Positions 54,001 through 57,000 of a stretch of DNA of 60,865 nucleotides are shown here, piece by piece. Source of the DNA: Dehalococcoidia bacterium (GTDB lineage: Bacteria > Chloroflexota > Dehalococcoidia > Lucifugimonadales > UBA3495); the NCBI GenBank assembly GCA_030740155.1, contig JASLXV010000093.1, forward strand, positions 1 to 60,865, given 5' to 3'. How positions within the stretch are numbered: the stretch's first letter is position 1; each line of letters begins with the position of its first letter. Position numbers: made by a program.

Positions 54001-57000
54001 GGTGTTCATGATCTGATTCGGGCCACCCTCCCCTCGGGCGGTTCTTCCGCTACGCCGGCACGATGAAGCCGCAGGGCCCCTCATTCCGAAGACGGCGCCC
54101 AACTGTGGCCCCGATTTGCCCGGCGAAGAACTGAGGCGAAGAATTGGAATAGAGACCTGATACCCCACTAAATGGTGGGGCATCAGGTCTCTATTCTTTT
54201 GGTCTCGCGGTGACCCCCGTGAGGGGCCGGACGCCTGTGTACTGTCGTGTAAAAAGCTTTAGGCCGGCGAGACTGCGGGACATCCCCGGCCCACGATTGT
54301 CCCCGATTGCATTGGGGCCGGAATCCAGAGAACCTTCTGCCGGTTCCCGGCCTGCGGCGTGAAGATGAACCAGGTACCAAGCCGGTTATGAAACACGGCC
54401 ACTTCCATTCGGCGATCAGCGTTCCAAATACTGTTCTTGGTGAGCTTGTCGAACCGTCGGCCCCGCGACCTTCGACAAGCTGTGGGTAAACGGATGATCA
54501 TAACGGAAATACCCGATTCTAGGCGCTGGACTCAGCCAACCTGGCCGAATATCTAATGCTTGCCGTTGGGCTGGATCAGCACCCGGGTCGTGCCGTCGGT
54601 GTCTTTGCGCTGGGTAAGCAGGTGATGCCCCGCTTTTTCAGCCCACAAGATAACGTCGTAGATGTTAAGGGCGTCGGCCAGGATGGCTTCAACGAAGGCT
54701 CCGTGGTCGGTCTCCATCTGCCGGGTCAGCGCCGCGATTACGCCGGCGCAACTCTTGCCGCGGCCATCTATGATTACCCATCCTCCGTTGGCGCCGTTGG
54801 CGCCGTTAGCCCCGTTGGCGCCGTTGCCCGTTGACGGCCGCGCCGCGGGCTCCGCGTGGACGTTAACCTCTCCGCTCTTCCGCAGCTCCAGCTCCCGCCG
54901 GAATTCAGCGACCGCCTCCCAGTTGACGGCCATGTCCCGCTCTCCTTTGCTGCACACGGCGCCGCGCACGCCCACGATATCCGGGTTGATCCGCGCCAAC
55001 TCGTCCAGGTCATCAACCTTGAGATGGCCCGACAGGGAAGTGCTCAGCCCCAACTCTTTGCCCTGCAGGACCATGTCCTTCAGGTCTGCTTCCGGAATGA
55101 AGTCGAACAGGTTCCGCCCGTCTTTGGTCAGGGTGTCGATCAAGAACCCGTCGCACTCGCCTTCCTTGGCCAGCTGGATCATCAGGTACGGGTCCAGCCC
55201 GTCGTAGAGGGGGTTGTCGGCGAACAGGGAGCCGATCAATTTGGTGTTGAAGCCCTCCATCGCCCGCCGCGCTTGCCGCAGGGTCTCCACCGCAGTGGCG
55301 TAGTCCGTTTTGCAGAAGCCGACCTTAACCGAGGTGGCGTCCAAGACCGCGGCCGCGTAGGCGGCCATTGCCACCGTGCCCGGCTGGCCGGGCACCACGC
55401 CCAGGGTCACGCTCACGTGTTTCTCGACCGGGACCTGGGCGCGCACCTGTTGCACCACCAGGGGGTGACCGGAACCGACCAGCGCTTCCTGCAGGTTTTT
55501 CACGTCGACCACGTCGGCTCCGCCCCGTTCCGCTTCCAGGGCTTCCTCGACGTTCTGGACGCTGACCATCAAGAGCATCCCGGAGAAGAAACTGTTGTTG
55601 CCGGTGAGCCAGGATACCCGGTTGTTGACCGGGGCGGCGGCTACCGGGGGTTGAGGCTTCAACGGCTCCAGCTCCCGGGCCAGGGCGGCCTTTTCCTCGG
55701 GTGCGAGGTTGGCCAGGGGGGGCCTGACCTCGCCGCCGGCCATTCCCATCAGCTCGCTCCAGTACTTCACCACGGAGACCGGCAGCGCCCCATTGTATTT
55801 GGTTACGGTCCGGGTCCACCAGGTGTCGGACAGCTCTTTGATCCGCCGCAAATGGGTTTCGTAGAACTGCTCGTCCAGGTCTCCCTTGGTGGCACGATCG
55901 ATGAACTGGACGTAGTAGTTGCACTCCGGTGTGTCGAAGCGCCAGTCGGAGGTGTTGGCGAACATCACTTGCTGCTGGAACCCCAGCTCCTTGGCTTTCC
56001 AGAAGATCCACTCGTCGGGCGTGCTGATTATCGACTCTTTGCCCAGGGTCAAGTGGGCCTCGATGGACAGCTGCTGATTGAAGCTGGCTTCCTTGACCCC
56101 GACGACGTTGGGTATTTGACACACTCGTTTCAGCGCTTGTGGGCTGAGCACGATGCCGAATTGGGGAGAATTGTAGAACATGATCGCCATCGATGTGTTG
56201 TCCGCCAGCAGCCGCACGTAGTCGATGACCTGCTCCTCCGTCTTGGTCACGAAGTAAGGCGGCGCCACGATAAGCAGGTCGAAGCCCACGGCCTCGGCAT
56301 GGCCGGCCAGTGCCAGCATCTCCGGAGCGGAGGTATGGGTCACGTGGGCGCCGATAGGCCATTGCCCTTTGGCCTCGTCAGCCAGAATGTCCATGACTTG
56401 GACCCGCTCATTGTGGGTGAGGCTCCAAAACTCGCCCATTCCCCAGGTGCAACCCGCGCCCCTGGTGCCCAGCTTCCGGATGTGGCGAATATTGCGCCTC
56501 ATCCCTTCCTCGTCGATGGCGTTATCCGGGGTGAACGGGGTGATGAGCGTGGTCCATTGGGCCCTCAGTGTTTCCCAGGCCCAATCTTGTACCTCGCTTT
56601 TGGTGTATCTTGCCATGTATTCCTCCCTGGCGGCATGTGATGCAGGCCAGCATCGTTGACGCCGTACCTTGCTATTCTACTGTGCGGACAATAGTCCAGT
56701 CCACCATCCCCTGGGTGATGGCAGCGGCGGCCCGCCATGATCCGTTGAGCCCGGCGGGTCTGAGGGAAACGTCAATTCAAGGCGTCTCTGGCCGCAATAA
56801 CCAGTAGGAGAGGCCGAACAGTCGTTGTTTGGGTGGTTAGTTTGCCGATGAATCCATGCAGAAAGGAAACGGAGCATACATGGCGTAAAGCCAAAGTTTG
56901 GCCAATGTCCGTATTGCGAGATTCATGCTGAATGCGGGCCGGCCGCCTCTCCTACTCTTCCTCCCCGTATTGCTGCTTGAGGGACTCCACCACCGCCGGA

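Follow-up and report, generated by a model that had tools for sequence, protein, structure and literature searches.

A fused aldolase/MfnB-like/TusA-like protein of SAR202 bacteria and its archaeal counterparts as a candidate ring-forming branch of a respiratory quinone pathway

In bacteria such as deep-sea SAR202 and in archaea, an aldolase of the DHDPS type (D), a barrel resembling MfnB (M) and a TusA-like domain (T), which we jointly call the module, travel together. They co-occur with late genes of the futalosine type, sit in operons of these late genes and alternate with the two known quinone ring pathways. We consider it probable that D-M-T carry out the early part of an isoprenoid quinone pathway, in which the ring is formed, independently of chorismate and without the ring enzymes of the Men or the futalosine route. 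The genome-wide survey's note on this DNA had pointed to an unknown furan- or sulfur-containing cofactor; the archaeal three-gene form and the tie to quinone late genes are new beyond that note, and with them the unknown cofactor becomes something specific, a candidate head group for a respiratory quinone. The main lineages for which no quinone pathway is known include Chloroflexota, and undiscovered quinones are expected (PMC13386864, section 5); the module, one gene that would act with four known late genes, is a concrete candidate for this gap.

The window, the whole stretch of DNA analysed, covers 60,865 nucleotides of a contig from a Dehalococcoidia genome (G000). The triple fusion reported in the survey's note is real, one uninterrupted frame in which Pfam finds DHDPS at residues 22-317 (113.4 bits), 4HFCP_synth at 349-572 (186.5 bits) and TusA at 615-682. 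The features are as follows:

54553..56616, minus strand: fused gene D-M-T, 687 aa, a single frame without internal stop
55642..56616, minus strand: D, class I aldolase of the DHDPS/NAL fold, residues 1-325 (PF00701 113 bits, alignments, conservation)
55579..55641, minus strand: D-M linker, variable (pLDDT < 50 at 323-347)
54871..55578, minus strand: M, MfnB-like TIM barrel, residues 347-582 (PF04476 186.5 bits; 4RC1 top match)
54784..54870, minus strand: M-T linker, low-complexity Gly/Asn/Ala, variable in length (pLDDT < 50 at 578-611)
54556..54783, minus strand: T, TusA-fold domain, residues 612-687, with invariant C623 (54748-54750) and no CPxP
56622..56626, minus strand: GGAGG, like a ribosome-binding site judging by sequence only, 5 nt before the ATG of the fused gene
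56952..58910, minus strand: acetyl-CoA synthetase, upstream neighbour 335 nt off, outside the module (synteny at 7/34 loci)
52718..54016, plus strand: speD-speE, convergent neighbours of the fused gene (local synteny only, 6/34 loci)

Our searches returned the same match count and identity range as the survey (34 of 41 genomes at 59-83%, G000 included). The gene is one frame at 24 of these 34 loci (the source genome, 22 family members and one genome of another family), broken inside the aldolase at one, and split into D and MT at nine, where the stop and restart fall in the D-M linker. Both the fused and the tandem forms described earlier occur, the split form in nine other families and not eight. 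A comparison of the neighbour genes at the 34 loci revealed nothing recurrent beyond housekeeping synteny. The module had also been called near-core in SAR202, but we found it in only 154 of the 251 genomes sampled from the order, most families carrying it either throughout or not at all (10/10 in each of f1, f12, f17 and f91; 0/5 in f5; 0/10 in f7 and in f14), and it is lineage-specific instead. In Thermoplasmata, Micrarchaeota and Marsarchaeota, the three parts are adjacent genes, and the Cys of T is invariant. Among 57 loci not labelled SAR202, T is present at 55 and D lies within the flank at 50, an unlinked D being found elsewhere in the genome in all four cases tested; metagenome loci of at least 5 kb have T in 39/40 and D in 36/40. 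One genome (G587) has M and D without T and also carries a complete set of futalosine genes, a point against the quinone reading. The data support D, M and T as a single functional unit with no part in methanofuran metabolism, and probably with a biosynthetic role.

D belongs to the DHDPS/NAL superfamily, with PF00701 over cut-off, the barrel fold and the Schiff-base Lys. It shares with the class I aldolases DapA, NanA and KDG aldolase this lysine, which by sequence is K175 (56092-56094), and the proton-shuttle tyrosine, Y148. Unlike these enzymes, D proteins have GMGE (as here) or NMGE at the position of the TTGE motif of DapA, no DapA Arg (QF in our alignments) and an invariant ANTSDWRFD loop, and D falls below all NCBIfam cut-offs. 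Thr-Thr and Arg are the substrate residues of DapA; their loss and a TIGR00674 score far under cut-off (84.6 vs 206.15) speak against DapA as the identity of D. NahE and PhdJ are hydratase-aldolases of the DHDPS fold. The nearest NCBIfam models, all far under cut-off, are catabolic lyases, and PMC10444878 describes SAR202 as rich in catabolic aldolases. These points would suit a catabolic or detoxifying module, in which D splits a 2-keto-3-deoxy acid into pyruvate and a C3 aldehyde, M strips phosphate or sulfite from the latter and T captures the reactive product on its Cys. Nevertheless, the module is single-copy in nearly all carriers, highly conserved, retained in streamlined genomes and located in quinone operons, no transporter or dehydrogenase gene recurs beside it, and such a role seems to us quite improbable.

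M shares its TIM barrel with MfnB, the 4-HFC-P synthase (MJ1099; PF04476, NF002573). PDB 4RC1 is its best match in sequence as well as in fold (TM 0.88 by target), and among the matches listed the fold search returned MJ1099 and generic DHDPS/NAL structures only. By alignment numbering, D25, K27, K85, D151, K155 and R217 of MJ1099 correspond to D371, K373 (55498-55500), K431, D494, K498 and R560, all kept in M and the first five invariant. We take D25, K85 and D151 of MfnB to be essential. K27 is its Schiff base residue according to PMC6604932, and K155 and R217 are presented as active-site residues in PMC11365854. Other positions are changed, namely those of MfnB D61, P29, G32, L34, A36 and Y122, and the KNPxEGSLGA loop is altered. 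At the D61 position, V407 replaces an Asp present in 97% of 61 other homologues; all SAR202 sequences (100%) and most archaeal rows have Val there.

The reading of M as an ordinary MfnB of a methanofuran or methylofuran C1 pathway would account for MJ1099 being the top match in sequence and fold, but M scores well under the equivalog cut-offs (NF002573, 186.7-189.8 vs 341, the lower value agreeing with the 187 bits noted before; NF002575, 180-182 vs 304), as does archaeal M (218.8 vs 341). Together with archaeal proteins at ~60% identity, it forms a clade of its own, which is set apart by a long branch (SH-aLRT 99, quick tree) and has a clade-specific patch at the predicted T docking site. Furthermore, the claim that the genome has no methanofuran pathway, made earlier from annotation, was borne out by a dedicated search: in G000 (94% complete), the methanofuran/H4MPT genes ftr, mch, mfnF, fwdA, RFAP synthase and an mfnD-type gene all gave nothing over cut-off (fwdA/fhcA likewise), in six family searches whose positive controls gave matches in methanogens. 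Two ATP-grasp matches, frames of 1114 and 454 aa, we read by size as CarB and PurD. The ordinary-MfnB reading is thus largely refuted for G000 and hardly credible overall, and because of the separate clade and the changed active-site residues the label "furan synthase" is unsupported as stated. A replacement of PLP synthesis was also considered and rejected, PdxS being present in 63/71 genomes. A protein cluster look-up gave no informative names, and in the literature outside subscription journals and supplements we found neither a description of the module nor a paper joining "SAR202" and "methanofuran".

T has the fold of the TusA/YeeD sulfur carriers (PF01206; TM 0.79-0.80 to TusA models) and an invariant Cys at the matching position. 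Its Pfam score is borderline, so that the earlier statement that it exceeds the cut-off of 28.6 is correct for the excised domain (32.1 bits) but not within the whole protein (26.9 bits); four of six archaeal T sequences are over the cut-off. Similarly, the Cys is found at 34/34 loci, while the exact motif DGRGKSC, previously given for 12 of 12, is found at 16/34. PMC11073785 treats CPxP as the mark of the TusA family, and this motif is absent from T (0/34 SAR202 tails and none of 55 further T rows). A predicted M-T complex scored 0.65 (best control 0.03; partner pLDDT at least 75; runs agreeing in at least 0% of contacts), over a mark reached by 116/157 solved and 2/215 mismatched pairs, so that docking of T on M is supported but not shown. 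The predicted docking is on the barrel face pointing away from the catalytic lysines. On account of this and of the missing CPxP, "sulfur carrier" is unsupported as stated, and a persulfide on T is putative. A desulfurase-like gene is present in G000. An Atlas feature search with T gave scores below 0.9, a lead only.

The link to quinones comes from co-occurrence and from operons. We compared 54 module-positive with 17 module-negative genomes, kin included; since kin are not independent, the counts overstate the effect. UbiD, of the MqnL type where typed, is found in 54/54 vs 7/17, MenD in 0/54 vs 6/17, and MqnC at 423 bits or more in 1/54 vs 5/17, and 11 of the 17 module-less relatives have a known quinone ring route. 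Across the order sample of 251, MqnL accompanies the module in 143/154 genomes, and of 44 genomes with MqnL only, 43 belong to nine families; in eight of these, the one genome tested showed MqnA/D. In a sample of 201 Thermoplasmata, all five module genomes have MqnL and none has PF02621. G000 itself carries mqnL (TIGR03701, 632.9 > 495.9), an mqnP-like gene, ubiX and ubiE in one operon, with MqnL, UbiX and UbiE over cut-off; the prenyltransferase is over TIGR01475 (252 > 181), and its best match is an MqnP model, under that model's cut-off. Profile searches of G000 gave no MenD, PF02621 or UbiC match and no MqnA/D, MqnC or MqnE (TIGR03699 below cut-off); UbiC was found in none of five genomes examined. 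The MqnC-like gene of the family is CofH by TIGR03551. Late genes of the futalosine pathway (MqnA-E early; MqnP, MqnL, MqnM/UbiX and UbiE late) thus occur in G000, with D-M-T, which has no family in common with the early genes, standing in their place. For comparison, PMC4746308 reports mqnP/L/M in gut genomes only alongside the Mqn pathway.

In both domains of life, mqnL-mqnP-ubiX(-ubiE) operons enclose the module, in four arrangements: ubiD-ubiA-ubiX-DMT (G032), ubiD-ubiA-ubiX-DMT-ubiE (G343), D-MT-ubiD-ubiA-ubiX (G545) and, at four Micrarchaeota loci, M-T-D-ubiD-ubiA with ubiX nearby. Separately, in 4/4 genomes of Marsarchaeota/Thermoprotei, D lies head-to-head with a MenA-like prenyltransferase gene (below cut-off). 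These arrangements, the exclusion of Men as well as Mqn within a single order and the absence of other recurrent partner genes at module loci argue against a thiol or a soluble cofactor containing furan or sulfur, whose apparent quinone links would reflect a shared aerobic lifestyle and inherited synteny. Such a cofactor would agree with the retention of the MfnB catalytic residues in M, and module loci of the source family and of Thermoplasmata have no neighbouring quinone genes, while 18 Thermoplasmata and family f5 retain mqnL without the module; on balance we regard it as unlikely. Some Thermoplasmata modules adjoin a UbiA-family gene, but it encodes heme o synthase and no quinone prenyltransferase, and was dropped as quinone evidence. 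Two small genes within the ubiD operon of f5 form an MNT-HEPN-like pair and do not encode ring enzymes.

Several observations weigh against the ring-forming branch proposed here. Those 18 Thermoplasmata, among 43 that are MqnL-positive, also have no PF02621, and of 17 such genomes retrieved, 16 are closely related to module carriers (UbiD identity 67-89%), so mqnL-mqnP persists there without the module; D was not found in five of them by a search run without a positive control. Family f5 has mqnL in 5/5, the module in 0/5 and PF02621 in 0/3, and ubiD occurs at only 1/80 metagenome loci. A weak MqnA/D-like gene occurs in eight of nine genomes of the source family, and MenA of G000 narrowly exceeds its cut-off (116.5 vs 102); the ring may therefore be salvaged or have a different source. 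It is also conceivable that the module is a quinone-linked accessory, which supplies a substituent, for instance a thio group, or a dispensable precursor to a ring that is salvaged or made from an unrecognised source of 4-hydroxybenzoate. The patchy module among Thermoplasmata that all retain ubiD-ubiA, the presence of MenA without MenD in G000 and the small genomes of Micrarchaeota (0.7-1.1 Mb), plausible salvagers, could be explained in this way. However, a substituent should need less than two C-C bond-forming aldolase folds, and for an accessory step one would not expect the module to be absent from Men (0/6) and Mqn genomes (0/5) of the SAR202 set, which makes this role rather improbable. 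No quinone measurement for any module carrier was found in the literature outside subscription journals. The fermentative Tardisphaera isolates, for which PMC12542729 reports that quinones were not detected, are predicted to lack the module.

If D-M-T do form the ring, a route may be outlined by analogy, with its substrates, step order and ring all conditional. M could bind a triose phosphate as a Schiff base on Lys373, eliminate phosphate and join two C3 units, probably giving another C6 compound than that of MfnB. D might then add pyruvate through a Lys175 enamine and dehydrate the adduct, like hydratase-aldolases of the DHDPS fold, while T docked on M would donate sulfane sulfur from Cys623 or regulate the enzyme. 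The resulting aromatic or heteroaromatic hydroxy-carboxylate would undergo prenylation (MqnP-like), decarboxylation (MqnL with UbiX) and methylation (UbiE). Should this pathway hold, the likeliest single product is a thieno-fused, sulfolobusquinone-like ring, a tentative choice that falls somewhat short of an even chance, and sulfur-free naphthalene or benzofuran rings, taken together, are about as likely. Two trioses, pyruvate and S0 minus 5 H2O sum to C9H6O4S, a dihydroxybenzothiophene carboxylate, which MqnP, MqnL and UbiE could convert to a sulfolobusquinone-like lipid; this bookkeeping selects no ring, as sulfur-free benzofuran and naphthalene sums balance as well. The fullest version, in which one three-domain protein builds an undescribed sulfur-heterocyclic respiratory quinone out of pyruvate, a pair of triose phosphates and sulfane sulfur bound to a carrier, without shikimate or oxygen, in SAR202 and several acidophilic archaea, is doubtful.

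A possible model for the product type is provided by sulfolobusquinone and caldariellaquinone of Sulfolobales, described in PMC3914697 as isoprenoid quinones with a sulfur heterocycle. In a control search, S. acidocaldarius had no PF04476 match. The Sulfolobales ring is derived from tyrosine, and any likeness would therefore be convergent. The pairing of M and T also resembles ThiG/ThiS and the thiosugar synthase BexX, in which a TIM barrel that forms a Schiff base works with a small sulfur-carrier protein; in contrast to D-M-T, these use thiocarboxylate carriers of ubiquitin fold, not a TusA Cys, and have no second aldolase.

If the ring-forming reading is correct, there is a chorismate-independent quinone ring route next to Men and futalosine, common to both domains, and possibly a new quinone in microbes without known ring pathways. 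It would account for electron carriage in an abundant marine clade, offer a potential SAR202 lipid biomarker and extend MfnB-type chemistry beyond C1 metabolism. Thousands of database entries carry the name "(5-formylfuran-3-yl)methyl phosphate synthase", which does not have to be right for them; those from the M clade would be misannotated. In a phylum sample of 301 genomes, we found one plain MfnB, at 37%, besides G000.

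The genome-wide survey's note described one gene of this window as a fusion of a DHDPS-like aldolase (D), an MfnB-like barrel (M) and a TusA-like domain (T), and the fusion is real: a stop-free frame of 687 residues holds three Pfam domains.

54553-56616, reverse strand, residues 22-317: DHDPS (D)
54553-56616, reverse strand, residues 349-572: 4HFCP_synth (M)
54553-56616, reverse strand, residues 615-682: TusA (T)

In an AlphaFold model of the 687-residue protein, the three domains are joined by loose linkers (mean pLDDT 70, pTM 0.48), and a Foldseek search with the predicted structure ranked MJ1099 first, followed by DHDPS/NAL structures. 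The claim that the TusA domain exceeds its Pfam cut-off of 28.6 holds for the excised domain (32.1) and not for the whole protein (26.9); T is the sole TusA match within the source genome. Within the M-T linker, which differs in length between relatives, 9-nt short tandem repeats (window 54787-54825) code for GANGANGAN.

Each part fails a defining membership test for MfnB, DapA or TusA: the fused protein scores 186.7 against NF002573 (cut-off 341), D scores 84.6 against dapA (cut-off 206), and T has the TusA fold and lacks the CPxP motif. In the alignment, D retains K175 and Y148, with GMGE where DapA has TTGE and QF at the DapA Arg, both being substrate positions in DapA. Residues D25, K27, K85, D151, K155 and R217 of MJ1099 (D25, K85 and D151 being essential residues of MfnB) align with D371, K373, K431, D494, K498 and R560 of M, and all are invariant. 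According to the available parts of the sources, K27 is the Schiff-base lysine of MJ1099 (PMC6604932), K155 and R217 bind substrate (PMC11365854), and CPxP marks TusA proteins (PMC11073785). M departs from 61 other homologues, which are sequence homologues rather than assayed enzymes, at positions that are 92-98% fixed among them, including D61 (V407 in M) and the loop after K27. In a quick tree of 123 rows, using one in three archaeal matches, a long branch (SH-aLRT 99) sets SAR202 M and its archaeal sisters apart from the rest. In its way of working, the module resembles MfnB and also a pyruvate aldolase of class I, and it may resemble a TusA carrier too. As the survey's note had stated, there is no sign of a methanofuran C1 pathway: searches of the source genome (94% complete) for ftr, mch, mfnF, fwdA, RFAP synthase and mfnD found none of them. 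We consider a role in a methanofuran pathway extremely improbable.

The fusion protein has matches at 59-83% in 34 genomes out of 41, the source genome counted, in agreement with the earlier count; 24 loci are single-frame, nine are split as D and M-T, and in the remaining one the aldolase frame is broken. The T cysteine, noted as invariant, is present in 34/34 loci, the exact motif DGRGKSC in 16 only. The description of the gene as near-core in SAR202 (a label taken from the names of close homologues) needs qualifying: M-T occurs in 154 of 251 genomes of the order, mostly all-or-none per family. A phylum sample of 301 yielded only the source genome and one plain MfnB. Frame breaks within D in four assemblies (L035, L071, L076, L198) are probably sequencing errors, and a fused D-M-T in a bin labelled Bipolaricaulia (L114:8951-10978; 68-77% identity per domain to the source genome) is either a mis-binned contig or a transfer.

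Starting from a 61% relative without T, the analysis came to a clade spread over Marsarchaeota, Thermoplasmata and Thermoprotei. Relatives numbered 517 in a genome scan; from the best 80 we analysed those bearing no SAR202, Dehalococcoidia or Chloroflexi label, 57 in all. Among these 57, T is present in 55, mostly encoded on its own by a small gene that follows M and always with its Cys, and D flanks 50, typically in the order M-T-D; its identity is about 50%, rising to 76% in one fused copy. For the seven loci that have no D close by, the search covered four genomes, each of which carries D elsewhere. In 4/4 genomes with an unlinked D, the gene stands head-to-head with a MenA-like gene scoring below cut-off. 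Metagenome loci of at least 5 kb contain T in 39/40 and D in 36/40. In two bacteria (L110, L111, and L163 of G587), M and D are adjacent without T. A single Micrarchaeota genome of 0.9 Mb carries M-T-D twice, on separate contigs (L060, L061), one copy being about 21 kb from ubiX-ubiD-ubiA. Six loci (L059, L062, L075, L081, L086, L112) have a chlorite dismutase/HemQ-family gene in the vicinity of M-T; moeA is present in five of them and xdhC in four.

A complex model of Micrarchaeota M and T (own alignments; partner pLDDT at least 75) scored 0.65 vs 0.03 for the best control, on a scale whose mark is reached by 116/157 solved pairs and 2/215 mismatched pairs; one of three runs scored 0.00, and runs agreed on at least 0% of contacts. 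The predicted M interface comprises the equivalents of K520, S525, T526, R542, N544, R579 and G582, residues that alignment comparison independently marked as clade-specific. By our mapping to model strands, this face would lie on the other side of the barrel from the catalytic lysines, making it less likely that T passes sulfur directly to the M it binds.

Because UbiD and UbiX lie beside some archaeal modules, we profiled quinone genes in 71 genomes. The order contributed 32 with the module and 17 lacking it, and the scan a further 22 positives (21 archaea and the bacterium G587). In these counts, which cover kin and not independent genomes, UbiD occurs in 54/54 positives vs 7/17 negatives, MenD in 0/54 vs 6/17, and MqnC (at least 423 bits) in 1/54 (G587) vs 5/17; strong PF02621 (MqnA/D) pairs go with MqnC. 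The MenD- and Mqn-bearing negatives do not overlap, so 11/17 have a known route and 6/17 none. UbiC was found in 0/5 genomes searched. The module as a substitute for PLP synthesis was rejected, PdxS being present in 63/71 genomes. The source genome has an operon of mqnL (632.9 vs cut-off 495.9), an MqnP-like prenyltransferase, ubiX and ubiE; its MqnC-like match is CofH, in an F420 cluster with cofG-like, cofD and cofC genes (L162, contig C92). In the source genome's family, weak PF02621 homologues (95-143 bits) stand alone in 8/9 genomes, adjoining an MTHFR-like gene, and none occurs in the source genome; such lone genes without MqnC/E are at L154:7505-9178 and L166-L170.

Across the 251 genomes of the order, 187 have MqnL, 143 with the module and 44 without; 11 have the module without MqnL and 53 have neither. 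One of the 44 (G372) has a genus-mate carrying the module, and the others fall in nine families, eight of which have MqnA/D in the single genome tested. According to the available part of PMC4746308, gut genomes carry mqnP/L/M only together with the Mqn pathway, and that of PMC13386864 lists Chloroflexota among lineages without a known quinone pathway. Of the 72 genomes whose listed hits share one contig, 43 have mqnL and the module no more than 25 kb apart, a figure that fragmented assemblies bias upward, and much of this linkage may be a single inherited arrangement. Shared operons are more telling: ubiD-ubiA-ubiX-DMT (G032), the same followed by ubiE (G343), D-MT-ubiD-ubiA-ubiX (G545), and, in four Micrarchaeota loci of which two are near-identical, M-T-D-ubiD-ubiA with ubiX close by. 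D is aldolase-like, and in this company a catabolic module is very improbable.

D-M-T is one unit, with its gene company and exclusions, and it is rather probable that it forms the ring in an early branch of the respiratory quinone pathway. M would condense triose phosphates through a Schiff base and phosphate elimination, D would add pyruvate and then dehydrate, T would donate sulfur or regulate, and MqnP, MqnL/UbiX and UbiE would complete the lipid. Adding up two trioses, pyruvate and S0 and taking off 5 H2O gives C9H6O4S, a dihydroxybenzothiophene carboxylate and proposed analogue of the futalosine product 1,4-dihydroxy-6-naphthoate; sulfur-free sums also balance (C9H6O4, C12H8O6), so the arithmetic permits this ring without selecting it, and we consider the sulfur-ring version less likely than not. 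The early enzymes that the Men and futalosine routes use are absent here, and an early D-M-T branch, having no family in common with known ring pathways, would be new in kind, while the late steps are already known. In the open-access literature (a scope that takes in neither subscription papers nor supplementary material, PMC13386864's genome tables being an example), we found no account of the module.

Several results go against the ring-forming reading. Among 201 Thermoplasmata, five have the module, 43 MqnL and 21 PF02621; the five carriers have MqnL (5/5) and no PF02621 (0/5), and 18 genomes have MqnL with neither module nor PF02621 (one, the unpublished G685, enters this count only). It is unlikely that all 18 result from incomplete assemblies, so salvage or another ring source must exist in this set, defined by module and PF02621. 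In 16 of the 17 fetched, UbiD shares 67-89% identity with its counterpart in module carriers, and D was not found in five of the 18 by a search that lacked a positive control. Their 17 ubiD-ubiA loci are L171-L187. The ninth MqnL-only family (f5), with no MqnA/D in three genomes, is a second exception and a further orphan quinone case; its ubiD and ubiA are split by an inserted MNT-HEPN-like gene pair (L159:8265-9057, L165:7811-8600). G587 has M and D without T alongside a full futalosine set. We think an accessory quinone step quite unlikely. No quinone genes adjoin the module in the source genome's family or in Thermoplasmata, and among 80 metagenome loci, of which half are shorter than 5 kb, one shows ubiD. 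These results would suit a cofactor unrelated to quinones, which we regard as unlikely. Quinone data for a module carrier were not found in the literature, nor for cultured SAR202 in the available part of PMC10444878.

A UbiA-family neighbour of some Thermoplasmata modules was rejected as a quinone gene, being heme o synthase, which adjoins the module or lies within about 4 kb in L071, L076, L107, L108, L257 and L260. MenA of the source genome (TIGR00751; L279:4875-7372, contig C85) also counts against the ring-forming reading: it is just over its cut-off, without MenD, and directly follows a CrtI-like flavoprotein gene, with a polyprenyl synthase about 7 kb away. Elsewhere in the window, a DUF3179 protein is split across two consecutive frames (22253-23380), and genes for methylmalonyl-CoA mutase, an acyl-CoA dehydrogenase, a glyoxalase-fold protein and a B12-binding subunit lie in a row (25230-29455).
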